The position numbers were made by a program, and so were the translations under genes. A model generated the notes under the pieces. It saw only the letters and a program-made list of their open reading frames with translations, ran no database searches and was not told where the DNA came from. 64,000 nt of DNA, taken from assembly GCA_963539835.1 (NCBI GenBank), contig CAUTMM010000003.1, positions 78,728-142,727 on the forward strand, read 5' to 3'. The DNA is from an uncultured Acholeplasmataceae bacterium (lineage in GTDB: Bacteria > Bacillota_I > Bacilli_A > Acholeplasmatales > Acholeplasmataceae). Below are positions 31,332 through 59,200 of the stretch, piece by piece; position 1 is the stretch's first letter; each line of letters begins with the position of its first letter.

Positions 31332-33143
31332 CTATCTTTTTGCAGCAACTAAACCATAAACTTTAGCCACGTCTGTAAAGCCATAGTCTCCAGTTTCTTC
31401 AATGTATCTGACTAAATTAAGATTAGTACTTTCCTGGGTTGCAGTCCACCAATATTGATTTGAGTCTATAAAAAACTGCGGCATCCAGTTTTCATGGTTA
31501 TAGTTTAGCGGTCTAAATTGAGAGAAATTAACACCTCTGTAAACTAAATTTGGTCCAGTTTCTTTGCCAAGTACAGCCAATGCAAAATCGGTTGGGTTTT
31601 TGATTAGTTTAAAACGATTTGCCGGACTATCTGCAGTTTTTTCAACACCGAACTCACCATCGTCTAACGTAACTGCAAACAGTTCTGCTTTCATGATTTC
31701 AGAAATCTCTTGAAGTAAACTTTTGAAGATAGAGTTTACAAATGTCGCAACCTCAGGTTTGTTGTCTTGATGAATACTAAACGGAGTAAAGTCCAAAATC
31801 TTTTTTGTAAAATATGTTCTTTTATCTGGAATTGGGTCAAACTCAACTTCTTCGAATTTAAAGTATTCTCCATTTAATTTCTCATATGCTTCGCCAGAAT
31901 CGGTGTAAACCACAGTTCTAGTAAACTGTGCGGTTAACACTCTACCAACTGAATTGAAAGTTGCAGGAGTTTGGAAAACAATTTCTTTTTGAATGTCACT
32001 TTGATTAAGTTGAACTTTAGTTTGTGGATATAAGTTTGCCCCGTCTACTATTATGTGTTTGTAGTAAACTGTAATTTTTAGGTTTTTGTCAACCTTTGTT
32101 TTAAAAAGTTCTGCTTTAGTAATTGGAGTTCCGTTTAACTCAATTTTAGAAACTTGAAAGTTTTTGTCTTCTTGTAAATCTATGTTTTTTATTTCTTCGT
32201 TGTGTCTGCGAGTTTGTGGACTAATTTTTTTAGTTGCGGCTTTTATATCAAATTCTAAATTATAAACTTTTCTTTTAACATCTATTGTTACGATGTTTTG
32301 TGCAGGATCTTGAGCCACGACTAAACTTTGTCTGCTAACTTTTGGTGTTTGATAAACGTTTTCATCTGGATTTTTAAAATTAACTTGATGAGTAGAGCCA
32401 ATTTTTGTGTTTACTTCATGTGTGTTGGTAATTATTTGGCCGTTTTCGTCTTCTGTATTAACAATATATTTAACCTTAGTGATAGACGATACAAAAATAG
32501 GTTTGGCTTTTGTATTTTTATTTAATGGTACACTAAAATCTACTTTGTTACCGTCTTCATCAATATAGTGAGAAACCACTTGTTCCACACCTGCTACAAC
32601 TTTTTTAACATTAAAAAGAAGTTCTTTTACAGTTTTACTTAAAGTGTGTGAATACTTAAGTTCATATATTTTAGCAAGGTCTGTATGAATTGTGTCTGGT
32701 TTGATTTCAGGATCTGCGAAATCAAAAGTAACAGTATATTTTTTTAACTCAAAATAAAACACTAATTCCTGACTTGATTTTGTTGTGTCTACTGTCAATT
32801 GTGTTTTAGAAAGTGCTGGGCTGAAATCTGCATTGTGATTTGAAAAATCTTGTTCTGCTTTCAGTACAGTCCAGACTTTTTTAACTTTATCTTGCTTTAA
32901 ACTTACGGTTTTGCCATGTTCATATGCACCAATTTTTTGGTAAACTGTTTTTTCGGAGCCTTGATTGCTTAATTTTTCAAAAACTAATTTAACTCCAACG
33001 ATGGTTTTGTTTTTATCATTGCCTGTTGTTTGGCTACTAGATTTATGAGTTGCTAGCACTGTTGTTAAAGTAATAATAAAAATTAACAAAAAAACGGTTG
33101 CGGCAATTATAGAATAAATTGTGATTTTTTTTCTTTTTGACAT
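31332..33143 (-). CDS. N-terminally anchored surface protein, paralog A (603 aa from the SD-supported start), with a DUF6273-like C-terminal domain
   Basis: GGAG SD before the ATG at 33143 (MSKRKKITIYSIIAATVFLLIFIITLTTVLA). Beta-rich modules are shared with the 762-aa and giant proteins. The C-terminal domain has YPQTKV...NGEYFKFEEVEF...PTDFALAVLG...YWWTATQ...VYGLVAAKR. Confidence 0.8.
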   Translation of the reverse strand: MSKRKKITIYSIIAATVFLLIFIITLTTVLATHKSSSQTTGNDKNKTIVGVKLVFEKLSNQGSEKTVYQKIGAYEHGKTVSLKQDKVKKVWTVLKAEQDFSNHNADFSPALSKTQLTVDTTKSSQELVFYFELKKYTVTFDFADPEIKPDTIHTDLAKIYELKYSHTLSKTVKELLFNVKKVVAGVEQVVSHYIDEDGNKVDFSVPLNKNTKAKPIFVSSITKVKYIVNTEDENGQIITNTHEVNTKIGSTHQVNFKNPDENVYQTPKVSRQSLVVAQDPAQNIVTIDVKRKVYNLEFDIKAATKKISPQTRRHNEEIKNIDLQEDKNFQVSKIELNGTPITKAELFKTKVDKNLKITVYYKHIIVDGANLYPQTKVQLNQSDIQKEIVFQTPATFNSVGRVLTAQFTRTVVYTDSGEAYEKLNGEYFKFEEVEFDPIPDKRTYFTKKILDFTPFSIHQDNKPEVATFVNSIFKSLLQEISEIMKAELFAVTLDDGEFGVEKTADSPANRFKLIKNPTDFALAVLGKETGPNLVYRGVNFSQFRPLNYNHENWMPQFFIDSNQYWWTATQESTNLNLVRYIEETGDYGFTDVAKVYGLVAAKR

Positions 33144-33191
33144 ATTTCTCCTTAATTTAAAGCGCTTTATTACGATATGCACAAATATTTT

Positions 33192-33220
33192 ACTATAAAC
33201 CTATTTTAATGAGTAATTAA
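33192..33220 (-). promoter_or_regulatory. Weak candidate promoter for paralog A
   Basis: The minus strand reads TTAATT, a 17-nt spacer, then TATAGT. It lies downstream of the paralog B terminator. Confidence 0.3.
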
Positions 33221-33261
33221 TAATTAGATTAAAATTACCGATGCTAACAAATTAGCCTTGA

Positions 33262-33297
33262 TTTCAAAAGAAAACCCCTTTCTAATATAGAAAGGGG
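33262..33297 (-). terminator. Rho-independent terminator of the membrane/CPBP/paralog B operon
   Basis: Minus-strand RNA reads CCCCUUUCU-AUAUU-AGAAAGGGG followed by UUUUCUUUU, 8 nt after the stop of the 762-aa gene. Confidence 0.7.
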
Positions 33298-33304
33298 CAA
33301 ATAT

Positions 33305-35593
33305 TTATTTTTTACCTACAACAACACCAAAAACATTATAAACTGGGAAATAAGACCAATCCATTTTGTTGTTAATATCTTTTCTATAGACAATATATGA
33401 TTTAGGATCGATGTCTCCATGCTGAGTTGCAAGCCACCAAGAACCAAGATTATCAGGTGCATAATACGGCATCCATCTATCGCTGTCGTAGTCTGAAGGT
33501 TTAAAACCGCTAATGTCGTTTGCACGCAAAGAAGCGTATCTAAAGACTTTAGGTTGCTTAATTTCCGACATTAAAATTTCGGTGGCATAGTCGGTAGATT
33601 CTTTTCTAAGTTTTTCAGGTTCATTTCTAGCAATGTCGTTTACTCCAAACATTTTATCGGATTTGTCAAAAGTCAAAGGGTACAAGTTAGTTGTTCCAAA
33701 AATTTTTGAAATGTTTTGAAATAGACCATTCAAGATTGAGTTTTCGTATTTAGAGTTTTCCTTAACATCTTTTTTATATATATTAAAAGGCGTGTAGTCA
33801 ATAATTTTTTTAGAATAAAACCCAGTGGCACCAGGAATTTGGACAAACTCAACTTCTTCTAACTTAAAGTATTTGCCGTTGAATTTTTCGTATTTATCTG
33901 CACTATTTTTTCTGTAGACATATGTTCGAGTAAAATCAAATTTATGAGTTTTGCTGTCTGATTTAAACTCAAAACTTTGTTGTTTTGTTTCTTCTCTCAA
34001 AATATCTGCTTGCGTTAAGTCTACTTTAGTTTGTGGATATAAATATTTTGGAACAGAAACAACAATTTCAATTCTAACTGGTTTGTAGACTATGTAGTTT
34101 TCAACTTCCACTTTGGTTTTTTCTACATTGCCGATATAAAATTTAAGAATTTTGTCTTTGTATAAACTGTTTGTATCTATTGCGCCAACTTTTGCACCAT
34201 AATACACACCTCTTGCAGGTGGTGCAACTAAAGAGTTTATAACAGTAAAAGAAACTGTAAAGTAGCGACGTTTTAAAGTAATGGTTACTGTGTTTTCAGT
34301 GTTGTCTGCAGATACTTTAAAGGTAGTTCTTGTAAACTCAGGGTCAAAATAAATTACTTTGTTGTAGGCAAAAGAAACGGTGTGAGTTTCACCTATTTTT
34401 TGCTCTTGTGTTTGATAAGAGACTTTGTAGTGTCCATGCTCATTTTGACTTTTAATAATGTAGGTGATTTTACGAGTTTGAATTTCAACTTGAGCATACA
34501 AGTTAAGTTCGTTTACTCCTGCTATGTGTTTTGCTTGAACAGGTCCTGAAACAGAATCTGCCCAACCAATAAAGGTATAGTCGGTTTTTGGCTTAACTGA
34601 CGGATATTCAACTGCTCTGGTCAGTTTAACTAACTTGGTTTTAGGACCAGTAATATCAATGCTGTCATTTCCAATAAAATTTACTTTAGTAGTTTTTAAT
34701 CTATAGTACTGTTTTAAAACAACTGGAGTTCCGGTTTTATTTAGTTTTGCTGACAATAAGTTGCCACTGTGTGCTGTGTCTTTTTCGTATTTAGTTTTGT
34801 CCAAAGCAGTGTATTCTGTGTATTGAACTGTTTTTAAAGCAGTGTCTTTTTTTACTTCTTTAATTTCTTCATATGTGTTGTCAAGAGCACTACTTTCACC
34901 TTGTTTTTCAAGTAGGTGCATTACTGTATATTCTACTTCTAAGGCGGTTTTAGTAAATACTGGTTTGATTTTTAAGTCTGTGTTGTATGCTTTTTCAAAG
35001 TCTAAGGTTTCGCCGTTTTCAAGTAAAAAATGAGAAAGTGTGAACTTATGGGTTTCGTTGTCTTGCATTTTAACTGCAAGCAATGCTGTTTTAATTTCTG
35101 CGGGTATTTTGCTTGTGTACTTTAAGTTAAGTGGTTGTTTTAAGATATCTGAAACTGTAGATTGGTCAATTCCGCTTTCTGTAAAATCAAAAGTTATGCG
35201 GTAAGTTTTGGCTTTAAAGTAAAGTAAAAAATATTGCTTTTCGGCGCTAGAGTGAACTTTTAAAGTTTGCGTTGACTTTACAGAATCTGGTTTATTTTCG
35301 TGATTTTCAGAAACTAAGTCTTTTAATTTAGCGGTAATTTCAGGGTGCGTAATTTCAAGTTCAGTGCCTACTTTAAAATCACCAAGTTTGATTTCTTTTT
35401 CAAAGTCAGGTGCACTGTCTAGAGTTTCGTAAACTGTCTTTAGGTAAACTGTACTTTTGGTTTGAACTTCTGGATTGATTTTATCTTTTATTTTACTTTT
35501 AAAATGTAGTGTAAAAGCAACAGAAAGCGCAAAGATAAAGGCAAGTAATAACGCAAGCAAACCAATTAAAATATATTTCTTTTTAATTTTCAT
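33305..35593 (-). CDS. N-terminally anchored surface protein, paralog B (762 aa), with a Listeria-Bacteroides-repeat-like module and a DUF6273-like C-terminal domain
   Basis: Signal/anchor MKIKKKYILIGLLALLLAFIFALSVAF. YTFIGW repeat motif. Colinear with giant-protein residues ~1466-1640 and ~1889-2453. The C-terminal domain has YPQTKV...NGKYFKLEEVEF...STDYATEIL...SWWLATQ...VFGVVVGKK. Confidence 0.85.
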   Translation of the reverse strand: MKIKKKYILIGLLALLLAFIFALSVAFTLHFKSKIKDKINPEVQTKSTVYLKTVYETLDSAPDFEKEIKLGDFKVGTELEITHPEITAKLKDLVSENHENKPDSVKSTQTLKVHSSAEKQYFLLYFKAKTYRITFDFTESGIDQSTVSDILKQPLNLKYTSKIPAEIKTALLAVKMQDNETHKFTLSHFLLENGETLDFEKAYNTDLKIKPVFTKTALEVEYTVMHLLEKQGESSALDNTYEEIKEVKKDTALKTVQYTEYTALDKTKYEKDTAHSGNLLSAKLNKTGTPVVLKQYYRLKTTKVNFIGNDSIDITGPKTKLVKLTRAVEYPSVKPKTDYTFIGWADSVSGPVQAKHIAGVNELNLYAQVEIQTRKITYIIKSQNEHGHYKVSYQTQEQKIGETHTVSFAYNKVIYFDPEFTRTTFKVSADNTENTVTITLKRRYFTVSFTVINSLVAPPARGVYYGAKVGAIDTNSLYKDKILKFYIGNVEKTKVEVENYIVYKPVRIEIVVSVPKYLYPQTKVDLTQADILREETKQQSFEFKSDSKTHKFDFTRTYVYRKNSADKYEKFNGKYFKLEEVEFVQIPGATGFYSKKIIDYTPFNIYKKDVKENSKYENSILNGLFQNISKIFGTTNLYPLTFDKSDKMFGVNDIARNEPEKLRKESTDYATEILMSEIKQPKVFRYASLRANDISGFKPSDYDSDRWMPYYAPDNLGSWWLATQHGDIDPKSYIVYRKDINNKMDWSYFPVYNVFGVVVGKK

Positions 35594-35604
35594 ATATCTC
35601 CTAA

Positions 35605-36150
35605 TTAAATTAAGTTATAGTGGCTCAAAACATATAAAAAGTCGTTAAAACTTTTTGAGTTTCTAATTACATCAATGTTTTTGTTTAGTTTAAATGTTTC
35701 TGTACTGTTTTGAGTTTTTAAAGTTAAGGTATTTCCTTCAAAAAAAACTTCACTAAAGTCGCTAGGTGAAATTAAATAAACAATGTTAAAGTCAGTAGAG
35801 TTTACCAACTTAAACTTAAGGTCTTTGGTGACTGCAAAAATGTAAGTTCCTGCAGTAACAGTTGAGTTTTTCACAACAAATGGGCTCTGAATTTCTACGT
35901 CAAAAACTTCACGTTCATGTTCTAAATAAATTTGGGTTTTATTGTTGTTTTTTTGCTCAATTGTATTAAAAGTTAAAGTTAAAATAATAGAAATTACAAA
36001 CAAAGCACCTGAAAGCGAAAGTAAAATAATATAGACTAACTTAACGCGAAAGTCTGCAATTAAAAAGAAAAAACCAACTAAAAATAAAATAAAGGCAACA
36101 ACAGTTAATACAAAATTAACAATTCTTTTGATCTGCATTATCTTAAGCAA
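35605..36150 (-). CDS. Small membrane protein (2 N-terminal TM helices plus a ~110-aa beta-rich domain)
   Basis: 181 aa. Overlaps the upstream gene by 8 nt. The topology resembles bacterial PH-domain (YdbS/YdbT-like) membrane proteins, but that is only a resemblance. Confidence 0.6.
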   Translation of the reverse strand: MLKIMQIKRIVNFVLTVVAFILFLVGFFFLIADFRVKLVYIILLSLSGALFVISIILTLTFNTIEQKNNNKTQIYLEHEREVFDVEIQSPFVVKNSTVTAGTYIFAVTKDLKFKLVNSTDFNIVYLISPSDFSEVFFEGNTLTLKTQNSTETFKLNKNIDVIRNSKSFNDFLYVLSHYNLI

Positions 36151-37810
36151 GGAACAGTGTTATGACTGCTATTGTATTGTGTAAAATATGCAGCACTGAA
36201 GTTACAACCACGTTTCTTTTTGAGTAAACATAGACTAAAGAAAATGCCAGGCCACCTACTAAATATGCAAAGATATTGTAAGCAAACAAAGTAAACGAAG
36301 ACTCATTGACTACGTGGATTGCACCAAACACCAAGGTAGAAATTAAAACCCCTGGCCAGTTGGTTTTAAATAGAGAAAAAATTGCTTTTCTGAAAACTAG
36401 TTCCTCAATAATTGGACCAAATATACAAACTGTGAATATCAAGAACCATTTAAACTCGCCTCGCATCGCCGTTTCTATGGTTTGCTGGTTAAGCGATTCT
36501 CTAGAAAGTGCGTATCCGTAAACACCATCAATACTTGCGCGCATAGATTGCACGACAAATCCACCAACTATTGAAACTCCGAAAGAGATACCAAGGCCAA
36601 ATAGTAAAACTAGCCAATTTTTATTTAAAGCCAGTGTGTCTTTCTTAATAAATACAAAGTTTAACCCAAAAATTAAAGCAAAGCCAACTGCCATGCCGAT
36701 AAAGTTAAATAAAGCAAACGCATTGACTTGAGAAGTTATATTTTCGGCAAAGTATACATCGTGTTTAAGCAGGGCTGTAGTTTCTAATTCAGACTCTGTT
36801 TTTTGTACAAAAAATGGTAGTTTTTGAATGTTTTGATCAACATACACGCGCTCATAGACATCTCTTCTGTCAGAACCCGCAAGCGGCACATTTGCCAGCA
36901 CCCTTGAGTAAAGTACAGGATATAGGTCCTTTTTAATTTTTGAAGTCAAACCAATTAGTCTGCTGGTTTTACTAATGTAAATATCTGGAAACTCAGCACT
37001 TGGTGCTTCTACTTTTTGATATCCTTCAATTTGACTGTTTTTTTGATACTTGCGCACAACTACTGTGTATTTATCTAATTTAACATCTTTGATGTTAGAA
37101 AAAGTGCTAATAATTTTTCGGTCTTGAGAATCTGCGTAAATTAGTTGTGGCAAGGTTATGCCAAAGCCTGCAGTTTCAGCAATATCAAAGAAAACTAAGC
37201 GGTTTAAGATTTTGTTTTCTTTTTTGGCTTGTTCAAAATTATTTAAAGCAGCATGTTGCTCAGGAGTTAGTGATTTAGTATTGTCTGACTTGATTTTAAG
37301 AATTTGGCTAATCTTTGCTTTTTCGGCCAGAGTTTGAATGTATAAGTTTTGAAGATCAACTAGGTTTGCGTAAACTACACTACTTTCTTTGCTTTGAAAA
37401 GTTGAGTATTCGCCAAAAGTTTTGGCAATCAAGTTGTGCTTCTTTTCAAGTTCTTTAACCTTATTAACATCGCTAATTTTATAAATTCCAATATTGGTTT
37501 TGTGTTGTTTAATTTGTCTAAAAAAACTCTCTTCTTTAGTGGTTACCTTAGAAAGGATGTTGTTTTTGCCTTTATTGGCTTTTTGAAACAACGACATCAT
37601 TGCACCAGTTAAAATAAACATCAAAAAGTAAAGTAAGAAAGTTAAAACAGCCCAAAGCACAGTTTTTTTAGTGACTTCGAAGCGTTGAGGTGCTTTGGTT
37701 TTTTTAACTGGTTCAAACTGTTTTTCGTAGTCTGGTCCAAATTGCTTTATAGGTTCTGCATCTGTTTTAGTCTCTTTTAATTCGTCTGGTTTTTTTTCAA
37801 TGATTTCCAT
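36143..37810 (-). CDS. CPBP-family (Abi/CAAX-type) intramembrane glutamic endopeptidase with a large N-terminal extracytoplasmic domain
   Basis: 555 aa. One N-terminal TM, then a ~300-aa domain of unrecognised family, then a polytopic C-terminal region. That region carries the three CPBP motifs IIEELVFR (EExxxR), FGAIH (FxxxH) and HILHN (HxxxN). Confidence 0.8.
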   Translation of the reverse strand: MEIIEKKPDELKETKTDAEPIKQFGPDYEKQFEPVKKTKAPQRFEVTKKTVLWAVLTFLLYFLMFILTGAMMSLFQKANKGKNNILSKVTTKEESFFRQIKQHKTNIGIYKISDVNKVKELEKKHNLIAKTFGEYSTFQSKESSVVYANLVDLQNLYIQTLAEKAKISQILKIKSDNTKSLTPEQHAALNNFEQAKKENKILNRLVFFDIAETAGFGITLPQLIYADSQDRKIISTFSNIKDVKLDKYTVVVRKYQKNSQIEGYQKVEAPSAEFPDIYISKTSRLIGLTSKIKKDLYPVLYSRVLANVPLAGSDRRDVYERVYVDQNIQKLPFFVQKTESELETTALLKHDVYFAENITSQVNAFALFNFIGMAVGFALIFGLNFVFIKKDTLALNKNWLVLLFGLGISFGVSIVGGFVVQSMRASIDGVYGYALSRESLNQQTIETAMRGEFKWFLIFTVCIFGPIIEELVFRKAIFSLFKTNWPGVLISTLVFGAIHVVNESSFTLFAYNIFAYLVGGLAFSLVYVYSKRNVVVTSVLHILHNTIAVITLFLA

Positions 37811-38397
37811 TATTGGCGCTCCTTGACTTTTGAGTTGTCAGATTCTTTTAGCTCTATTTCTTTGTTTTCTAGTTCTTCAGTTTCCACTCCTTTAATTTCG
37901 CTTTCGTTTAGATGGCTTTCCAAGTCATTCAAATCAACGCAGGTAGTTTGAATAACTTCGGGTTCAACTGAATCAGCTTCGTTCTCATGGGGTTTTGCTT
38001 GTTTATATGTATTCATTAGTTGTTTTTCTCTGACCTTCCACGTTGTAGTTAAACAAAAAGGAACAGCGATAGCGATAGAAGAAACGCCAACTACAATAAA
38101 TGCAATTGCCAAAATTAACGAAAAAGTCTTAGTTGGATCAAATAAATTGATGTAAAAAGGAATTAACATCAAAAATCCCGCAACAGAATACAAAATATCA
38201 TCCATATTTTTTTCAAACTTATAAAAATAAAGCCCAATAGTTGTAGCAATTAAGTTAACTCCAAATATAGACTTTGCGACTATGTAGCAAATTAAAAGGT
38301 TATAATTAGTTGGACTTTTAATAAAACTAAAGCCGATTGTAACTGCCAAAATTATTGATGTGATTAAAATATAATAACTTCTTTTTTCTTTAAACAT
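37810..38397 (-). CDS. Polytopic membrane protein (about 4 TM) with an acidic C-terminal tail
   Basis: 195 aa. Its stop overlaps the next ATG (TAATG at 37808-37812). No family recognised. Confidence 0.62.
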   Translation of the reverse strand: MFKEKRSYYILITSIILAVTIGFSFIKSPTNYNLLICYIVAKSIFGVNLIATTIGLYFYKFEKNMDDILYSVAGFLMLIPFYINLFDPTKTFSLILAIAFIVVGVSSIAIAVPFCLTTTWKVREKQLMNTYKQAKPHENEADSVEPEVIQTTCVDLNDLESHLNESEIKGVETEELENKEIELKESDNSKVKERQ

Positions 38398-38429: not shown

Positions 38430-38438
38430 TGTTATAAT
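38430..38438 (+). promoter_or_regulatory. Extended -10 element TGTTATAAT for the ktrA-like operon
   Basis: Located about 50 nt upstream of the GTG at 38488 (SD TTGAGGT). Confidence 0.45.
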
Positions 38439-38487
38439 ATAGCCGTCTTTTTAATTTATTTTAAAGAAACAAATTGAGGTATTTATC

Positions 38488-39147
38488 GTGAAAAAAACTA
38501 TCTTAGTAGTAGGCCTTGATAATTTCGGGCAAACAATTTGCAAAGACTTATCTGAAAACGGACATATCGTAATTGCACTTGACCAAACTAGTGAAAAAAC
38601 TTTGAGAGTTGAGCCTTTTGTCGAACACGCTGCAACTGGTGTTTTGACAACCGCAGACATCTACAAAGACCTTGGACTTGGCCACGCTGACTGGGCTGTG
38701 GTTTCATTTCCAACACACTTTGACACTGCGATGATTATTGTAACTATCTTAAAAGATTTAGGAATGACAAATATTATTTGCCAGGTTACTAACGAATATC
38801 AAGAGCGAATTGCCAAAATGCTTGGAGCTTCGGTTACTATTTATCCAGATAACATCGCAAGTAAACAAACTGTTCGCAAAATCATTTGGCAGAATGTACT
38901 GGAACACTATGCACTAGACCAAAACTACGGAGTTTACGAAGTAATTGTTAATACCAACCGTTATGACGGAAAAACTCTAAGAGAACTGCAATTTCCAGAG
39001 ACTTATTCGGTAAACATTGTGCTAATTCGCAGAGCAGGTGTGACGAAAATGCCTTCTAAAAATGAAGTTTTAGAGAAAAATGACGTCGTAATTGTATTGT
39101 GCGAGCAAAACAAAATCAGTAAATTTCAAGAAATCTTAAATGACTAA
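38488..39147 (+). CDS. RCK-domain K+ transport regulatory subunit (KtrA/KtrC/TrkA-like)
   Basis: 219 aa. Rossmann motif VVGLDNFGQTICKDL...VIALD (RCK_N). The RCK_C part is colinear with Bacillus KtrA. No KtrB/TrkH membrane partner is adjacent. Confidence 0.85.
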   Translation: MKKTILVVGLDNFGQTICKDLSENGHIVIALDQTSEKTLRVEPFVEHAATGVLTTADIYKDLGLGHADWAVVSFPTHFDTAMIIVTILKDLGMTNIICQVTNEYQERIAKMLGASVTIYPDNIASKQTVRKIIWQNVLEHYALDQNYGVYEVIVNTNRYDGKTLRELQFPETYSVNIVLIRRAGVTKMPSKNEVLEKNDVVIVLCEQNKISKFQEILND

Positions 39148-40579
39148 ACTGCTTTTTGCAAGTCATAATTTAAACAAAGTTAAAGAAATTAAAGCATTTT
39201 TTTTAAACACTGAGTTTGAAATAATTTCTTTAACTGATTTAAATGACCAAACTAAAATCGAAGAATCCGGAAAAACTTTTCAAGAAAACGCGTTAATCAA
39301 AGCGCGTTATTTTTTCAATAAGTATCATTTGCCGACAATTGCCGACGACTCAGGTTTAGAAATAGTCGCATTAAACGGCTATCCTGGGGTTGAAACTAAA
39401 AGAAAAGAAGCAGAAATTTTTAAAAACCAAGGAAAACAGTTATTTGAAAAACTTAATGGTTTAAGTAAAAATGCCTCGTTTAAAGTGGTGCTTTGTCTTT
39501 ATTTTAACGGTGAGGCTAGGTACTTTGACGGTGAGATTAAAGGCGAGGTCAAACCGTACTCTGAGTTTGTCAAAAACACTTTTTTATATGACAACATTTT
39601 TTGGCCACGTGGCGCTAAGCGTGCTTTTTGTGAGTTTTCGGTAGACGAAAAAAATAAAATTTCGCACCGCGGGCAAGCAATTTCTAAGTTAATAAAATCA
39701 GTTAAGGGCAAGCCTTTTTTATTTGACCCTAAAAAAACTGCCTGCGCCTTTATTAAAGACACCTTTGGACTTGAACCTGAATATATAGACAGACTAAAAA
39801 AGGGCCGTCAAAACTTTGTTTTTAAGTTTCAGGTGTTTGGAAAAACTTACACTATTCGCATTCCTGGGTTTCCGCTTTATCCGTTTATTTCGTATACTGA
39901 CGAAGAAAAGATCCTAGAGATTGCCGAAAAAAACTCAATCTGCCCCGAAACTTTTTATCACAACCCAGATACTGGAATTAAGATCTCTAAATATATAGAG
40001 ACTACTTTAGAGTCTAAACCTGACTTAAAAGAAGTAGTTTTTAGGCTAAAAACACTTCACCAAATTAAAAAAGTAGAACCTTTTGACTATATTGCTCGGC
40101 TTGACGAAGCAATAAAAATGTCAAATTCTATTTCTGATAATTTAGATTTTCAAAAAGGATATCAGTTATTTAAAGCAGAACACAAAGAATTGTTTTCTAA
40201 ATTTTCGCCTTGTCAAATCCACGGTGATTTTCAGGCTGACAATATTTTGGTAGATAAATATTTTGCAAATCCTTTAATTTCTGATTTTGAGTTTACTAGA
40301 ACAGGATATCCAATTGAAGATATCACTAGTTTTTCAGGGCTTAGTTTAACTAAAATTAAAAAAGTTTTTGCACTTTATTTTGAAAAAGAACCGACAAAAA
40401 CAGAAATTAAGACTGTTTTATTCGCGCGTCTTTTTCAAATGCTTTTTTGGAATGCAGTGTCTAATTTTAAAAAAGATAGCAAAAACTCAGGTTTATTTAA
40501 TTTAAATTGGCAAGAAATTGAGACTTATTTAAATAACGAAGTTAAAAACACAATTGAGGCAATTGAGGACTTGAAATGA
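39140..40579 (+). CDS. Fusion protein: RdgB/HAM1-family non-canonical NTP pyrophosphatase (N) plus APH/choline-kinase-fold kinase-like domain (C)
   Basis: 479 aa. The N-terminal half has LLFASHNLNKVKE, ESGKTFQENALIKA, ADDSGLEIVALNGYPGV and EKNKISHRGQA. The C-terminal half has the catalytic-loop-like IHGDFQADNILVD and the metal-binding-like ISDFEF. Confidence 0.82.
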   Translation: MTKLLFASHNLNKVKEIKAFFLNTEFEIISLTDLNDQTKIEESGKTFQENALIKARYFFNKYHLPTIADDSGLEIVALNGYPGVETKRKEAEIFKNQGKQLFEKLNGLSKNASFKVVLCLYFNGEARYFDGEIKGEVKPYSEFVKNTFLYDNIFWPRGAKRAFCEFSVDEKNKISHRGQAISKLIKSVKGKPFLFDPKKTACAFIKDTFGLEPEYIDRLKKGRQNFVFKFQVFGKTYTIRIPGFPLYPFISYTDEEKILEIAEKNSICPETFYHNPDTGIKISKYIETTLESKPDLKEVVFRLKTLHQIKKVEPFDYIARLDEAIKMSNSISDNLDFQKGYQLFKAEHKELFSKFSPCQIHGDFQADNILVDKYFANPLISDFEFTRTGYPIEDITSFSGLSLTKIKKVFALYFEKEPTKTEIKTVLFARLFQMLFWNAVSNFKKDSKNSGLFNLNWQEIETYLNNEVKNTIEAIEDLK

Positions 40580-43578
40580 ATATAGAGAAATTATTGCTGC
40601 TTGAACGCACAGTAGACACAGTTTATATCATTAAGTCTTTTTTAGATAAAAACACAATTTCTTTGCAAGACTATCGTCGTGCGGTTTTTTTCATGCAAGA
40701 AATACTTTTAGAAAACCACAAACACAAAGAAGCAATTGAAGTTTCAAACTCCGTATGGCCAAAGTTCAAAGAAGCCGAAGAAAAAGAATATCTACTTTTT
40801 TTAACTAATTGGTTTTGGGCGTATTTAAGAAGTGGCAGCTCAGTAAATGCTCGCGAGATTTTTTTAAAAATTAAAGAAAAATACGGCTACAAAGTTGACT
40901 TTGATTTAGTTTATCTAGAGATAAATTTACTTAAACTAGAACAAAAGTTTGACTCAGATAAAGTTATTTCAGAGCTGAAAAAAACAGATTTGCCAGAAAA
41001 CTACGCTAGATACTATTTAAAAGAACTAGTTTCGTTTTTTGTCAGTCAAAACAAATTAGACTTAGCCTATGACTATTTAAATCAGGCAAATTCCAGATTT
41101 GATGAGCGTGACTTTGAACAAGAACTTAAATTGCTATTCGCCCTTGGTTGGGTTGACGAACTAAAACAAGTTTTAAAAGACTGCAATGGTATGGGCAAAT
41201 ATAAGGTAATTTCACAAGTTTACCACTATTGTATCGCTGTTAGCGAACAAAACAACCACCGCGCAGATATTATTCAGTCAGAATACGAAAAAGACATTTT
41301 AAAGTTAGCAGACAATGACTTAATTTTAATGTTTCTAGAGGCTCAACTTAAGTTTTTTAAAGCAAACTCACAACGTAACAACGAAGAAAAAACAGCGAAA
41401 CGCATCGCTAAGTTTCAGCAAAAGAAAGACAAAACAACTAAGTTAAACCTTGGGGAAGAACCAGTTATTTCACTTCAAGAAGATACTAAACCTAACTTTG
41501 AAGTAAAAGAAAAAGCCATAAAAGTTGAGGCCAGAGTTTATCAAAACTTTTTTGACGTCATGAGTTTTTACGCCAAAATTCCGCAAGATTTGAGTCTAAG
41601 AGAAACACTTAGAAGTCTTTTAATTAAAAGTGAGGCTTTAGTGCCAGCGGCTGATTTAGTAATTTTAAAAAATCAAACTTTATATAACTACAAAAAAGAA
41701 AGACTTTACAACAAAGATATTGAAGATATTCAGTTAGCTGATACCGCTTTTAGTAAACTAGTTCAAGTTAACTTTGACAAAATATACCAACAAGGCGATT
41801 TAACTGAGTTTAAAAACCCACTTACTGGCAGTCCATACTCCCCTGAATACCAGACGCTTTACTGTTTTTCTTTAAGCAAAAACTTAAAGTTTATCGTGCA
41901 AAGTCATAACTTTCAAGAAAGTGAATACACTTATTTTAAATTACTTTCAGCGCTTATTTTAGATGTTTTTGAAAAAGACAAAAACTTACTTAAACTAAAA
42001 CAAATTACTAACTTATTTACGACTTTAAAAGAAAACTCAACTCTGGCGTTTAAATACTACATAGACGAGCAAATTCATCTAAGCGTAGGAATGCGCGCGC
42101 TTTTAGACGGAGTTGAGACAACTACGCTAGACCAATACTGCACGCAAATTGTGGGTAGCGACAAAATTAGCTATAAAAAAGAGTTTTTAACTTGTAGTTT
42201 AAAACCAGGAAACTCACTAAAGCAAAAATACAGACTCAGAAAAAAACAAGTTGTGGAACTCGCAAGTTCTGTTGATTTATTTGGTAAAGTCGTGGTCTTT
42301 TCAGTAGTTTTAGACATAGACGAAGAACAAAGAACAATTAACACTTTGGCTGAAACTGCAAAGGTCAACAATATATATGGGCTGTATTCACACACAGAAC
42401 TTGAACGCGCTTTTCAAAGCAAGTTAATTGATAAGTTTTCCTTAATTTTAATTGAACTGAACTTCAATAACCGACATCTTTACTCACTTGAACTACAAGA
42501 AAAATATATTGCTGAGTTTCTAGATGTTTTAAAAGAGTTTTTTAACACTGACTTAATTTACTTCATTCAAGACAACAAGTTTGCTTTGTATGTGGATTTT
42601 AACGACATCAGAGCCTTGAGTAATGTGCTTAGTGAACTAAGTAAAAAAACACAAAACATCGGCAAACAAAACTGCTTAGAGTTAACCTTCTTATTTACAG
42701 CCTCTGCACTTAGATATCCAACTGCAACTTACAACAAAACTTTTAAAAAAATCTACAGATTTGCAGACCTTGCTTTAAACCTTGCTAAAACAAATGGAAA
42801 AGTCTTTCATATTTTTGAAAAAGAAGACCTGCACCAAGATATTTTTGAAGACGATGTTATCAAACTAATTTTAAACTATCCAGATAAGCTGAAGTTAATG
42901 CTTTTGCCAATAGTTGATGAAAACAAAAATGTTGTGCTTTACCAGGCTGGTTTTAGTCTAGACGGCTTTGACCTGGATTTTAAAGAAATTAAAGAAATTG
43001 CAAAAAAACACCGCAAGGCTGTAGAAATTGACTCAATTTTGTTTAAAGAAGTTGTAAATGCTTTAAATATAGCAACCGAAAAATTTGGCCAGATTTTTGA
43101 TGTTCTTTTACCACTGTCTAAAGAGTCTTTAATGTCTCTAGAGCTTAAAAAACAAATAAGTAAACTAAAATACAAATATCTAGCCCCACACATTTGCTTC
43201 TTATTTCCAAATGAAGAAGAACTACCCGGCGTTGTTGAAAACTTCAAGCAAAACCTTGAACAAAGTAAACATAAAGTGTTTACCAAAAATATCTCGGCGT
43301 ATTTAAGATACGGTTTTCAAGGAGTAGTTCAAAGATACACCGACGGCATTCGTTTTACTGAGTTTATCAAGATGTTTGCCCTTGAAACTAAAAAAACAAA
43401 CTCTTGTTTGATTGTCAAAGACTTAACTAAAAAAGATGAGTTTAACTCAATTAAAAAAATCAAAGACATTTGTTTTCAAGGTAAGTTATTCGCGCCAATT
43501 TCGGTTAGCGAAATATTTAGCAAAATGCAAGAAACTCAAGTCCAAAAGCCTGAGTTAGACAATGAAAACGAGATTTAA
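40576..43578 (+). CDS. 1000-aa multidomain protein: helical-repeat N-terminus, GAF/PAS-like middle, degenerate GGDEF and degenerate EAL domains
   Basis: ATGA overlap with the upstream stop. A PAS-to-GGDEF junction-like segment reads VVLDIDEEQRTINTLAETAKVNNIYGLYSHTELERAF. The GGDEF position reads IQDNKFALYV. ADLALNLAKTNGK stands in place of ADxALYxAKxxGR. The EAL part has LLPIV (for YQPIV), YQAGFSL (for EALLR) and a terminal FQGKLFAPIS (for QGYLFSxP). The CDS is secure; the domain calls are motif-level only. Confidence 0.8.
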   Translation: MNIEKLLLLERTVDTVYIIKSFLDKNTISLQDYRRAVFFMQEILLENHKHKEAIEVSNSVWPKFKEAEEKEYLLFLTNWFWAYLRSGSSVNAREIFLKIKEKYGYKVDFDLVYLEINLLKLEQKFDSDKVISELKKTDLPENYARYYLKELVSFFVSQNKLDLAYDYLNQANSRFDERDFEQELKLLFALGWVDELKQVLKDCNGMGKYKVISQVYHYCIAVSEQNNHRADIIQSEYEKDILKLADNDLILMFLEAQLKFFKANSQRNNEEKTAKRIAKFQQKKDKTTKLNLGEEPVISLQEDTKPNFEVKEKAIKVEARVYQNFFDVMSFYAKIPQDLSLRETLRSLLIKSEALVPAADLVILKNQTLYNYKKERLYNKDIEDIQLADTAFSKLVQVNFDKIYQQGDLTEFKNPLTGSPYSPEYQTLYCFSLSKNLKFIVQSHNFQESEYTYFKLLSALILDVFEKDKNLLKLKQITNLFTTLKENSTLAFKYYIDEQIHLSVGMRALLDGVETTTLDQYCTQIVGSDKISYKKEFLTCSLKPGNSLKQKYRLRKKQVVELASSVDLFGKVVVFSVVLDIDEEQRTINTLAETAKVNNIYGLYSHTELERAFQSKLIDKFSLILIELNFNNRHLYSLELQEKYIAEFLDVLKEFFNTDLIYFIQDNKFALYVDFNDIRALSNVLSELSKKTQNIGKQNCLELTFLFTASALRYPTATYNKTFKKIYRFADLALNLAKTNGKVFHIFEKEDLHQDIFEDDVIKLILNYPDKLKLMLLPIVDENKNVVLYQAGFSLDGFDLDFKEIKEIAKKHRKAVEIDSILFKEVVNALNIATEKFGQIFDVLLPLSKESLMSLELKKQISKLKYKYLAPHICFLFPNEEELPGVVENFKQNLEQSKHKVFTKNISAYLRYGFQGVVQRYTDGIRFTEFIKMFALETKKTNSCLIVKDLTKKDEFNSIKKIKDICFQGKLFAPISVSEIFSKMQETQVQKPELDNENEI

Positions 43579-43594
43579 AAATCTCGTTTTTTTA
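43568..43594 (+). terminator. Rho-independent terminator
   Basis: ACGAGATTT-AA-AAATCTCGT followed by TTTTTTT. The hairpin spans the stop codon of the 1000-aa gene. Confidence 0.75.
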
Positions 43595-43644: not shown

Positions 43645-43653
43645 TGGTAAAAT
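43645..43653 (+). promoter_or_regulatory. Extended -10 element TGGTAAAAT
   Basis: Located 24 nt upstream of the ATG at 43677, with SD AAAGAGGT in between. Confidence 0.45.
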
Positions 43654-43676: not shown

Positions 43677-43868
43677 ATGGACAGAATAGAAGACAAAAAA
43701 CTAATTGGCCAAAAAGTCAAAGTAGAAAAAGAAAGAAGTTATGGAGTGGTTACTAGAATAGACTATGAACACGGTTTAATTTACGTGATTTTCGCTAGAA
43801 TGCGTGAAGAAAAATACCCTTATCCAGAGGCAATTGACCAAGGTATTTTGACTCCAGTTGGAAAATAA
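43677..43868 (+). CDS. Small hypothetical protein (63 aa)
   Basis: Good SD. It ends 2 nt before the pepC ATG. The composition is beta-rich and basic-acidic. No family recognised. Confidence 0.55.
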   Translation: MDRIEDKKLIGQKVKVEKERSYGVVTRIDYEHGLIYVIFARMREEKYPYPEAIDQGILTPVGK

Positions 43869-56208: not shown

Positions 56209-59200
56209 TTAAGAATAAATGTATGGACGACAAGGCACAACCCCACCAATAAAGTTCATTGGGTAGTGAGTGTTACTAAAATATGTTGAGTTAGTGCGAT
56301 AAACACCTGTTATACCTTCAATATAGCCATTATAATTTTTATAAACTTCTGCGGTAAGATATGCATATGGTCGTTTACTTTGATCGTTGTATTGATTATC
56401 TTCAAAATACCAACTAGACAAATAATTAGTTAAACTAGCCGGAATTAGTTTAGCAAAATCAATACCACGATAAATTTGTGTAGTAGCCGCAGTCCAAGGT
56501 CCAAGAATTTCTTTTGCATAATCTGTAGGTTCTTTGACTAATTTGTTTATCTTACTTGGATTTACAGAATGGTAAAGAGCGTTATCTCCATGACTCCAGG
56601 TAGGTGGTGTAAGTTCTGCGATTCCCATAACCGCAGCAATATCTTTAAGCATCGCTTTGAAAATTGAGTTTTTAAATTCATATCCGGCGTAACCTCGGTT
56701 TGCAGATATAGTGTATGGCGAAAAGTCAATAATTTTTTCTGTCATTAAACTTTCTTTTGTAGCTAGTTTCTTCCAAACAACATCTTCAAATTTAAAGTAT
56801 TTGCCGTTATATTTCTCAAAACGATTGCCTTGCGTATCTTTTACAAATACACGGTTGAACTTAGCAACAAGGTCAAAGCCATCTGCGTTGAAGCGAAGTG
56901 TTCTTTCACTAACTTCTTCGGCTTCAAGACTACCTGGATTTTCTACTAAAGTTTGTGGGTACTGATATTTAACTTCTTCATACCAACCAAATTTCAAGGA
57001 GACTTCCGTGTTTTTTGTAACTAAATAGGTTTCAATGTAGGCTAAATTGTGTTTTGCGATTTTTTGACCGTCAATTCGGAAATCCAGGCGGTCAAAGCCA
57101 TAATATTCAACTTGACTTATTTCAATTTTGCCAATTGCAGCACCATGTTTAAGTCTGCGTTCATATAATTGGTATAGATCTTGCGGTGCACCTTCAACAT
57201 TGAAAGTTACTTTATAGACGTGTAGTTTTAAATAGATAGTAACAACATTGTGTTGGTCATCTTTGTGAACTGTGATAGTTGGATTTGAAAAAGTCATTTC
57301 GTATTTTTCAGGTTCAGGGTTTTCATATTTAGCGGCGTAAAAAGAACCAATTTTTGCTTTGTCTTTTTTAAATTTAGTTATCTCGTATTCACCGTCTAAC
57401 TTTTCCTTGCGAATTTCATAAGTAATATCTCTTTCTTTGGCTATGTAGACTGGATATAAGTAAATACTTTCCTTAGTAATAGGGGCAACAAATTTAGTTA
57501 AAGGTCCATCAATGTTAGCAGGATAATTAGACCAACCCGCAAAAGTCTCGGAATCAGTATCCGGAAGTTTGCGAGATAGGTTCACCAAGCGAGTCATTTT
57601 AACTTGCACGCCTTCTGGATATTGGTCGTTAATAGTTTTTTTGTAGTATACAGTGACAGACTTAAGTGAATAGTACTGATAAACTTTAACGGTGTTATCA
57701 CCTGGTGTTAAGTCAGCGGTTAGTTGATTTGCTTTAGTAGTATCTAAAAAGTAAAGGTCGTTGTTTAATTTAGGATATGCTTCGTATTTTGCACCCAATT
57801 CAACTAGTTGGTCTTTTTTAGTTTCAATAATTTCGTCGTACTTGTCGTTTAGATCAGCAGACTCACCTTGTTTTTCAAGGTAGTGTACGATTTGATAATT
57901 GACTTTGTGAATTTCAACTTCAAAGAAAGGCAAGAGGTCAACAGGTCCGGCAATTCTGTAGGTACTAAAATCTAAAGCAGTGGTTTCTAAATAAGCGCCA
58001 TTCATTTCTTTGCTGTCTTGCCAGTGTTTAAATTTATAAGTGCGACCATGGAAAACAATTGAAGGGTTAATTAACGGTTTAGGGATTTTTGCACCATACT
58101 TAAGCATTAGTTTAGTTGGCATATCGTTTATTTTTAGACCTTGGTTTGAAAAATAATAATAATTTATAAAATGTCTATCCCAAGTTACTTGAAAAACTTT
58201 GCGTATGTATCTTAACTTAAATACGGTAGAACCGTCTGGTGCAATATTTTGAGTCTGGCTATCTGACATTGTAAACCCGTGGTAGTACTTCCACATACCG
58301 TCTTTGCCGTCAACAGTTACCGAGGTGTTAGAAATTGCTCTTCTGGTAACTGTGCGAACTTCTTCAGCGATATCTCCTTCAATTCCTTCAAAAATGTGCT
58401 CAATTGTGTAAGTAGTGTAGTCTGGCGCAAATACTGCGTAGACTTTAGTAGTGTTTCTTGTGATGATAAAATCACCTGGTTTTCCTTTTGGAACAGATGC
58501 CCAACCGACAATCTTCCAGCCTTTTTTGACGTTAGTATTCGTATTAAATCTAAAGTAATTGCCAGCAGTTGCTTGAATAGACGGCCAGGTTGGATTCTCT
58601 ACTTTATCTAGGTCGTCGTCGTCAACGGTTGGAGTGATTTTAACGGTAACTTTTCTCTTTTTATATTTAGCCTCTAAGAATACGTTTTTGTTGTAAGCAA
58701 CTGTTGGGTCAAACTTGGTGCCTGAAACTAAAAAGCGATCAAACTCATAGTCAAAATATTGGTTTGTTGTAATTGGTTTGATTTGAGCAAGTTCATCTAA
58801 GAATCTCTTTGAAACGGTTTGTGAATATTTAACTGTCTCACCATTTTTAACATAGTCAGAAATAGAAGAAGAATCAGTTTCATTATAGGTATAAAACCTA
58901 ACTGTGTAGGTATTGGCCTTGTAGTAAGCAGTTAAAAACTTCTTGTCTTTTTCTTTCGTTACTATCAATTCAAATACAGTATTTTGACTCTTTGTGTAGT
59001 CGTTAATGTGGTTTGGATGCGGGTTGTTTCGCAGGTATTCACTGATAATTGAATCAAACCTTTTTAAATCAATCTTACCACCAATTGTAACGTCAATTGG
59101 ATACGGCAATTCTTTGACTTCATCTGGTGAGTTGTCTAGAGTTTCCCAAACTAAACGGACATAAACAGGGCGAGTGGCTTGATTTTCTTGCCACTTCGCT

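Follow-up and report, generated by a model that had tools for sequence, protein, structure and literature searches.

An rdgB-linked operon of Acholeplasmatales encoding a predicted GGDEF-EAL pseudoenzyme

What, if anything, unites three overlapping genes whose products are an RCK protein, a pyrophosphatase fused to a small-molecule kinase, and a protein of 1000 residues that on its own resembles no catalogued family? The question is raised by positions 38488 to 43578 of a 64,000-nucleotide stretch of contig CAUTMM010000003.1 (hereafter the window) from an uncultured Acholeplasmataceae bacterium (GenBank assembly GCA_963539835.1). A first-pass annotation, made from the letters alone, had taken the three genes for a nucleotide-signal trio, in which gene 1 receives cyclic di-AMP (c-di-AMP), gene 3 receives cyclic di-GMP (c-di-GMP) or a related molecule, and K+ homeostasis is thereby tied to nucleotide signalling or to surveillance of the nucleotide pool. 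We find that the third gene belongs to a family spread across the order Acholeplasmatales, predicted to be catalytically dead in both its GGDEF-like and EAL-like domains, and that its constant companion is rdgB and not the RCK gene. The three genes are the following plus-strand open reading frames (ORFs):

38488-39147, + strand: gene 1, 219 amino acids (aa), GTG start, KtrC/KtrA-like protein with RCK_N and RCK_C domains
39140-40579, + strand: gene 2, 479 aa, RdgB/Ham1 fused to a LicA-type kinase homologue
40576-43578, + strand: gene 3, 1000 aa, TPR / GAF-like / PAS-like / GGDEF-like / EAL-like

The third gene: a tandem fold with lost catalytic sites

Taken alone, the window's gene 3 product gave no match in Pfam or NCBIfam except for a chance hit to DUF4951, and phmmer against the PDB returned noise only. 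A word-indexed homologue search recovered three close relatives only; an exhaustive HMMER search seeded with four gene 3 sequences recovered 54 representatives (50% clustering), nearly all of them aligned over their full length of about 1000 aa. An alignment of 45 sequences is the basis of the per-member Pfam, profile and AlphaFold results given here. Among these 45 members, 37 individually match EAL (PF00563; best expectation value, E, 3e-17) and 12 match GGDEF (PF00990). Searched as a profile, the family matches DosP over its GGDEF-EAL tandem (E 6.6e-16), as well as the EAL enzyme Bd1971 (E 1.4e-11) and consensus TPR proteins (E 3.9e-11), and a sub-profile restricted to the GGDEF region matches the active cyclase 6zxm (E 2.7e-6). 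With this alignment AlphaFold reached a predicted local distance difference test score (pLDDT) of 86, versus 43 with four sequences. Foldseek related the resulting model to DosP (5e-19), the PAS-GGDEF-EAL protein PA0861 (2e-18) and LapD (5e-14), as well as to MorA and PA0575; with isolated EAL domains, template modelling (TM) scores of up to 0.77 were obtained, and the MorA EAL domain superposed with a root-mean-square deviation of 3.0 Å. At the level of the family and of the structure, a GGDEF-EAL tandem fold is hence established for the C-terminal half of gene 3. The whole protein can be divided as follows:

40576-41445, + strand: TPR-like helical repeats, aa 1-290 (all-helical, pLDDT about 90, TPR profile match)
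41530-41985, + strand: tentative GAF-like alpha/beta domain, aa 319-470 (secondary structure, pLDDT)
42043-42321, + strand: tentative PAS-like domain, aa 490-582 (model topology)
42322-42819, + strand: GGDEF-like domain, aa 583-748 (sub-profile, Pfam matches of members, residue mapping)
42820-43545, + strand: EAL-like TIM barrel, aa 749-990 (profile, Pfam matches of members, Foldseek, residue mapping)

A disordered linker separates the helical repeats from the GAF-like domain in the model. This domain, for which one family member matches Pfam GAF_2, contains the most conserved motif of the family, YKKERLY[DN]K (aa 372-380), in which K373, R376, Y378 and K380 are invariant. The Foldseek alignments to the PAS-GGDEF-EAL structures of PA0861 and DosP span more than 560 columns.

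A catalytic-residue table covering 111 family members indicates that the residues for making or cleaving c-di-GMP have been lost throughout the family. In the GGDEF-like domain of the window protein, GGEEF is replaced by QDNKF (family consensus D-F-N-Q-L), the metal-binding Asp by E627 and the guanine-binding Asn/Asp by R633/H634, and the Arg of the I-site RxxD is absent, with N657 at that position. In the EAL-like domain, Q790 takes the place of the Glu of the EAL motif (Glu in 85 of the 111 members), S794 that of the EALxR Arg (V/A in the family) and P846 that of the Asn (a Pro in 87 of the 111). The other window positions are P878/E881 for ExxE, K904-N905 for DD, V918 for the Lys, K948 for the EGVE Glu and Q968 for the Gln; the family consensus at the mapped EAL positions runs E, V/A, P, K/M, T-S, H, R, E. 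When the eleven EAL motif positions are compared with DosP, E881 and Q968 alone match, and neither is the commonest residue of the family. The comparison list of c-di-GMP contacts was that of FimX (PMC7288161); those that could be mapped via DosP (the QP Gln, EALxR Arg and EGVE Glu) are replaced, and Q968-G969 alone is kept.

By per-domain conservation, no other part of the family is kept as well as the GGDEF-like and EAL-like domains, which have invariant residues of their own (K620, N676-D677-x-R679 and R713-Y714-P715-x-x-T718), which argues for a conserved pseudoenzyme and not a decaying gene. The degenerate GGDEF-EAL identity proposed in the first-pass annotation is thus borne out by the family profile, the model and the residue table, although the proposed profile check fails on the window protein itself and succeeds only through its relatives.

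The operon and the order-wide block

Elements of the operon other than the genes themselves are:

38430-38438, + strand: extended -10 promoter-like element TGTTATAAT, a perfect TGnTATAAT without recognisable -35
38476-38480, + strand: Shine-Dalgarno-like GAGGT, 8 nucleotides (nt) ahead of the gene 1 GTG, conserved in locus L001
39140-39147, + strand: gene 1 stop / gene 2 start overlap ATGACTAA, 8 nt, reading A-ATG-ACT-AA
40576-40579, + strand: gene 2 stop / gene 3 start overlap ATGA, 4 nt, read from the sequence
43564-43591, + strand: intrinsic terminator-like hairpin (12 base pairs) and T-run, enclosing the gene 3 stop codon

The TGTTATAAT box lies 50 nt 5' of the GAGG-preceded GTG start of gene 1; it is absent from a consensus promoter scan because that scan demands a -35, and none is present. 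As a check we used the relative at L001 (L001, L008 and the like being locus labels), whose proteins are 70-96% identical to those of the window. Over the upstream region and first codons (106 nt compared) the two are 94% identical, with the box unchanged, and the L001 terminator retains the hairpin and T-run with a different stem sequence. The ratio of nonsynonymous to synonymous substitution (dN/dS) against L001 is 0.03 for gene 1, 0.22 for gene 2 and 0.09 for gene 3; purifying selection acts on all three. The region has about 33% G+C, and its long ORFs stay intact with UGA read as stop. Scans of the window with Rfam, including its c-di-AMP and c-di-GMP riboswitches, and for tRNAs gave no match. 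Stop/start overlaps of the gene 1/gene 2 type recur in L001, L008, L080 and L062, and the RCK/rdgB overlap is conserved in lineages that are 35-42% identical. Read together, the overlapping genes form what the sequence presents as a genuine operon, a single transcription unit with coupled junctions. All the sequence-level statements of the first-pass annotation (three plus-strand genes, the 8-nt and ATGA overlaps, the promoter-like box and the terminator) hold.

Whether the three genes are also a unit in evolution is a separate matter. A genome scan with gene 3, seeded with a 10-sequence sub-alignment, gave 71 loci, nearly all from Acholeplasma, Acholeplasmataceae, Mariniplasma, Peloplasma or Anaeroplasmataceae and including A. 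laidlawii, A. granularum and A. oculi; the scan relied on two peptide patterns, and the prevalence within the order is therefore a lower bound. ORFs were called in all loci and labelled with iterated hidden Markov models; upstream counts refer to the 58 species loci with at least 3 kilobases (kb) upstream, and downstream counts to 67 loci. An rdgB gene lies upstream of gene 3 on the same strand in every one of the 58. Between rdgB and the next gene stands a YfcE/YsnB-type metallophosphoesterase gene (55/58), the A. laidlawii version of which matches Pfam Metallophos_2 and TIGR00040. A separate gene for a LicA-like kinase directly precedes gene 3 in 47 of the 58; the median gap is 4 nt, and in 41 of 46 species loci the gap does not exceed 10 nt. 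Eleven species (L011, L012, L024, L025, L046, L050 and L075-L079, including metagenome-assembled genomes of Anaeroplasmataceae) have no detected kinase, and there gene 3 directly follows rdgB, usually with yfcE between them. The RCK gene is found at just two of the 58 loci, 56 having gene 3 without it. Further upstream, a divergent Rce1-like gene is present in 56 and an ankyrin-repeat (Ank) gene in 44 of the 58; downstream of gene 3 come a protein of about 350 aa (60/67) and one of 63-66 aa (55/67). The window lineage and the deep branches L007 and L008 have no phosphoesterase gene, and their rdgB is fused to the kinase. The upstream 7 kb of L080-L082 hold cmk, a gene for an rpsA-like S1 protein, der, gpsA, hbs, the ankyrin-repeat gene and the Rce1-like gene on the minus strand; the same housekeeping order, with spoIVA inserted, occurs in spore-forming Firmicutes that have an rdgB::kinase fusion. 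The flanks outside the block vary by lineage, and the block persists down to about 20% gene 3 identity.

As judged from these gene orders, the order-wide block reads [RCK]-rdgB-[yfcE/ysnB]-[licA-like kinase]-gene 3-[~350-aa protein]-63-66-aa protein, with the window operon as a local version of it. What is kept as a unit is rdgB...gene 3, often joined by the kinase gene and seldom by the RCK gene. The trio first proposed is therefore not the unit, the partners of gene 3 being rdgB and the YfcE-type gene: the neighbourhood does prove conserved across the order for rdgB, the kinase and gene 3, but not for the RCK gene.

Gene 2 can be split into two parts:

39140-39709, + strand: N-terminal half, aa 1-190, RdgB/Ham1 non-canonical purine nucleoside triphosphate (NTP) pyrophosphatase domain
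39725-40579, + strand: C-terminal half, aa 196-479 and stop, LicA-type choline/ethanolamine-kinase homologue with APH fold

The first half matches Ham1 (PF01725, Ham1p_like) end to end (1-185/186; 153.7 bits, E 6.5e-45) and the RdgB structure 4bnq at E 5e-53; the TIGR00042 score of 137.7 falls slightly under the cutoff of 145.35. In the alignment of fusions, K13, E42, D69-D70 and S175-R177 of this domain are invariant and H176 is nearly so; these are residues to which catalytic roles are assigned. The kinase half alone matches Pfam APH (PF01636) weakly (E 4.6e-6, 27.0 bits, cutoff 23.2), and the kinase family profile matches S. pneumoniae LicA (4r77) over nearly the whole domain (E 7.8e-37 and 2.6e-37). 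Its Brenner motif HGDxxxxN and its DFE motif are invariant in the fusion alignment (H361, D363, N368, D382, E384). Both halves thus retain the motif residues that an active enzyme would be expected to have, and gene 2 is predicted from these motifs to combine an ITP/XTP pyrophosphatase with a LicA-type small-molecule kinase; the fusion noted in the first-pass annotation stands, with its kinase now specified. Of the LicA Trp residues, one aligns with the invariant W242 and another with the invariant V245 (alignment A8); the second of these Trp residues may line the choline pocket. No licB, licC or licD was found in the operon or nearby, either in the scan of the window ORFs or in the A. laidlawii block.

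Similar RdgB::LicA-like fusions, 30-34% identical to that of the window, occur in spore-forming Firmicutes (L003:8001-9446, L004:8001-9419, L006:8001-9434), where they lie between spoIVA/hbs/ankyrin genes and rpsU-yqfD-phoH-ybeY, at loci with neither an RCK gene nor a GGDEF-EAL-like gene. The link between rdgB and the kinase therefore reaches beyond Acholeplasmatales, and this recurrent fusion appears to be undescribed. Two other assignments for gene 2 were considered and rejected. A CcrZ-type cell-cycle kinase as the closest relative gives way to LicA, which scores 30 orders of magnitude better, the CcrZ-type similarity being weak (NCBIfam CcrZ, E 1.8e-4 for the A. laidlawii kinase; PDB 7s3l, E 3.7e-5). 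A defence-system reading had been prompted by a Ham1-like match to KomB, but RdgB structures match at 5e-53 versus 5e-22 for KomB; PADLOC gave no match for any gene of the operon.

Gene 1 matches Pfam TrkA_N (PF02254, E 9.7e-16) and TrkA_C (PF02080, E 7.8e-17), both above cutoff, and its best solved relative is B. subtilis KtrC (6i8v; residues 1-215 aligned, E 1.3e-33), in keeping with the RCK_N/RCK_C identity it had been given. A profile search sets it in a separate subfamily, about 26 clusters with scores of 238-381 bits, apart from ordinary Bacillaceae KtrC proteins, which reach about 225 bits or less. Wherever the surroundings were traced, this subfamily stands at the head of an rdgB operon (7/7 lineages: 3/3 sampled members, L008, L062, L069 and the window clade), the RCK genes of all seven sitting between the Rce1-like gene and rdgB. 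We assign gene 1 to a KtrC-derived RCK subfamily seen only in that place. Its Rossmann G-loop reads GLDNFG and so departs from the canonical GxGxxG of nucleotide-binding loops. All 26 aligned members (the window and 25 database clusters) have G[LIM]DxFG, and Bacillaceae KtrC has GLGRFG: the second Gly has become an invariant Asp in the subfamily, and the equivalent of KtrA Arg16 is also gone. In KtrA, Arg16 and Glu125 sit at the ATP gamma-phosphates (PMC11078986).

The c-di-AMP contacts of S. aureus KtrA are I163, I164, D167, I168, R169, A170, N175, I176 and P191 (PMC7288161). The 4xtt alignment places L, R, Q, F, P, E, N, I and K of the window protein at these nine positions; five of the nine are clear replacements, among them R169 to P, D167 to Q and I164 to R. 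The comparison suggests that the RCK protein of the window clade has probably lost c-di-AMP binding, against the initial expectation of a KtrA/KtrC-type receptor; most of the remaining subfamily members retain the signature D-L-D-[ILV]-R...VNI. Despite its altered c-di-AMP site, gene 1 is under stronger constraint than either of the other two genes. The earlier remark that no KtrB is adjacent also holds, in that no TrkH/KtrB-type membrane protein is found among the scanned ORFs of the 64-kb window, but it is not remarkable, KtrC, the closest solved relative of gene 1, being likewise placed; the membrane partner of KtrC, KtrD, is encoded elsewhere in the B. subtilis genome. The broader claim that all three products bind nucleotides survives by family name only, given the GLDNFG loop and lost contacts of gene 1 and the lost sites of gene 3.

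Function of the block

The reading that we favour, at about even confidence, is that gene 3 encodes a non-catalytic cytoplasmic sensor or scaffold produced together with the upstream enzymes, with the RCK protein as an accessory regulator. The TPR repeats would bind partners, while the GAF-like, PAS-like and GGDEF-like modules would bind a ligand, and translational coupling would keep gene 3 in fixed proportion to the upstream enzymes. Where the RCK protein is present, its N-domain would hold a ligand other than canonically bound ATP or ADP. As to physiology, the guess that hangs together best, and it is speculation, is that such an assembly controls osmolyte or ion homeostasis (choline, K+) in cells without a wall.

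Several points count against this proposal. The osmolyte/K+ idea is drawn speculatively from family names only, and any ligand or protein partner of gene 3 is putative. Neither the kinase nor the RCK protein is an obligatory partner, since gene 3 persists without them at 11 and 56 of the 58 species loci, respectively. The conserved order may reflect general collinearity, in which even the divergent Rce1-like and Ank genes are kept; the block is embedded in the cmk-rpsA-der-gpsA-hbs region, and to find rdgB next to yfcE/ysnB is usual among the housekeeping genes of Firmicutes. Predicted topology and one weak Pfam match are the basis of the GAF-like and PAS-like labels, which are tentative. The window protein, moreover, deviates from the consensus of its own family at several of the substituted EAL positions, and a family-specific pocket, if there is one, may not be kept in the window clade.

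Some of these points lead to an alternative that we regard as unlikely: a purely positional operon of genes with unrelated functions (pool cleaning, a lipid/osmolyte kinase, a K+ regulator for a distant KtrB/KtrD, a signalling relic), adjacent since small Mollicutes-type genomes keep long mixed operons. Such a reading would readily cover a block with divergent genes (Rce1-like, Ank) in a housekeeping setting, would allow the kinase and RCK genes to come and go with gene 3 unaffected, and would accommodate the RdgB::kinase fusions that lack gene 3 in spore-forming Firmicutes. It is less easily squared with flanks that vary while the block persists to about 20% gene 3 identity, or with junctions that are tight or overlapping in most species, including the conserved RCK/rdgB overlap. 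The rdgB::kinase fusion and the operon-restricted RCK subfamily (7/7 lineages) are hard to explain without some functional tie.

The (di)nucleotide-signal module of the first-pass annotation we judge to be improbable. In its favour, degenerate EAL and GGDEF domains are established c-di-GMP receptors, as in FimX and LapD (PMC7288161), and the gene 3 model does match the structures of both in Foldseek. GGDEF/EAL proteins are present in the Acholeplasma lineage (PMC2408644), most members of the RCK subfamily retain the c-di-AMP signature DLD[ILV]R..VNI, that subfamily is dedicated to the rdgB operon, and the block also encodes the nucleotide-acting RdgB and a YfcE-type phosphoesterase. The residues that such signals would need tell otherwise: gene 3 is without the RxxD, the EALxR Arg, the QP Gln, the metal ligands and the EGVE Glu, the QG alone being kept; the RCK protein of the window has 5/9 of the KtrA contacts clearly replaced, and its G-loop has Asp for the second Gly and has lost the Arg16 equivalent. 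The supposed receiver encoded by gene 1 is, in addition, missing from nearly all species that have gene 3. Dinucleotide binding by the operon products therefore looks unlikely on the residues compared; the nucleotide-signal trio as a whole is partly supported, in that the operon is real and undescribed, but gene 3 does not need gene 1.

More doubtful still is an undescribed regulatory system of wall-less Firmicutes, in which gene 3 and, at loci that have it, the dedicated RCK protein would respond to a ligand that is none of c-di-GMP, c-di-AMP and ATP. Candidate ligands would then be a non-canonical purine nucleotide, by way of RdgB, or a phospho-metabolite of the LicA-like kinase, and the output would be ion/osmolyte homeostasis or quality control of the nucleotide pool. 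It is very improbable that gene 3 is still an enzyme with changed chemistry, for example one whose GGDEF-like palm would cleave or transfer some other nucleotide via K620, N676, D677, R679 and R713: conservation is indeed highest in the GGDEF-like and EAL-like domains, their invariant polar residues are foreign to the canonical domains, the operon partners act on nucleotides and the degenerate GGDEF domain of GdpP reportedly has weak ATPase activity, yet the metal-binding acidic pair at the usual position is not kept apart from E627, and an activity of this kind is without precedent in the gene 3 family.

A sensor or scaffold remains the reading that we prefer for gene 3. The Acholeplasmatales, which live freely or in the gut, are related to mycoplasmas and phytoplasmas, and their means of sensing the surroundings are little understood. 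On the present results, GGDEF-EAL proteins degenerate in both domains form a large family across the order, the divergent members of which are missed by standard domain searches. Should the pseudoenzyme have a ligand or a partner, it would represent a new type of input or output for GGDEF/EAL proteins and, if so, a handle on signalling in wall-less bacteria; the cultivable A. laidlawii carries the same block, with its gene 3 inside 873354-892356 of NZ_CP126461.2, and the block is therefore directly testable there.

Neighbouring genes and known systems

Two neighbours of the operon belong to the wider gene order:

43677-43868, + strand: 63-aa protein of no known family, with its own extended -10 TGGTAAAAT at 43645-43653
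36143-37810, - strand: Rce1-like (CAAX protease family) membrane protein, PF02517 E 1e-15, divergent from the operon

The TGGTAAAAT element is conserved in L001, and the 63-aa ORF probably forms a separate transcript together with pepC. The 63-aa protein, without match in Pfam, NCBIfam or PADLOC, is 73-75% identical across Acholeplasmatales, and the neighbouring 1000-aa protein only about 23%. The protein of about 350 aa (L056:11017-12060, L080:12524-13585), without match in Pfam or NCBIfam, often overlaps the end of gene 3 and is absent from the window lineage. The Rce1-like protein of the window has a long N-terminal extension (555 aa, versus about 400 aa in A. laidlawii), and a 195-aa membrane protein (37810-38397, - strand), found in the window clade only, is encoded between it and the operon.

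Elsewhere in the window, a 2453-aa ORF (56209-63570, - strand) with Listeria-Bacteroides repeat domains (PF09479) in four stretches is probably a giant surface protein. Adjacent ORFs of 616 and 762 aa (31332-35593, - strand) have no Pfam match beyond one at chance level; the 762-aa protein has a hydrophobic N-terminal segment, the pair is followed by a 181-aa membrane protein, and all three have counterparts in L001.

All parts of the operon belong to known superfamilies and are therefore not categorically new. What appears undescribed is the TPR-GAF-PAS-GGDEF-EAL family with both catalytic sites degenerate, the constancy with which it stands behind rdgB throughout Acholeplasmatales, and the GxDxFG RCK subfamily. 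NCBIfam has no model for gene 3, the A. laidlawii orthologue included, and the literature searched on Acholeplasma with GGDEF or c-di-GMP gave a census remark only, in line with the earlier impression that the combination is not a described operon. By that census A. laidlawii encodes 14 GGDEF/EAL proteins (PMC2408644), so that c-di-GMP signalling exists in the order.

The components compare with characterised systems as follows. The RdgB/Ham1/ITPase half of gene 2 is alike end to end to its relatives and differs by the kinase fusion and the missing phosphoesterase gene; the rdgB-yfcE order of most Acholeplasmatales resembles the rph-rdgB-ysnB of Bacillus. With S. pneumoniae LicA the kinase half has the kinase motifs in common, but it has Val for Trp at V245 and no lic partner genes. 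Gene 1 has the length and two-domain architecture of KtrC/KtrA of B. subtilis and KtrA of S. aureus and, like ktrC, is not adjacent to a membrane subunit gene, but it differs in the GLDNFG loop (versus GLGRFG), in the replacement of R169, D167 and I164 of the c-di-AMP site in the window clade and in always heading the rdgB operon. Gene 3 has in common with DosP, PA0861/RbdA and MorA the PAS-GGDEF-EAL tandem fold (Foldseek E 5e-19 to 5e-14), and with the degenerate receptors LapD and FimX the decay of both catalytic motifs. Its N-terminus, in contrast, is made of TPR repeats and a GAF-like domain, without the HAMP/transmembrane segment of LapD or the REC domain of FimX, and it lacks the EALxR Arg, QP Gln and EGVE Glu that contact c-di-GMP in FimX. 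Its occurrence is confined to Acholeplasmatales, in a fixed position behind rdgB, and its sequence has diverged so far that the window protein matches no Pfam model.

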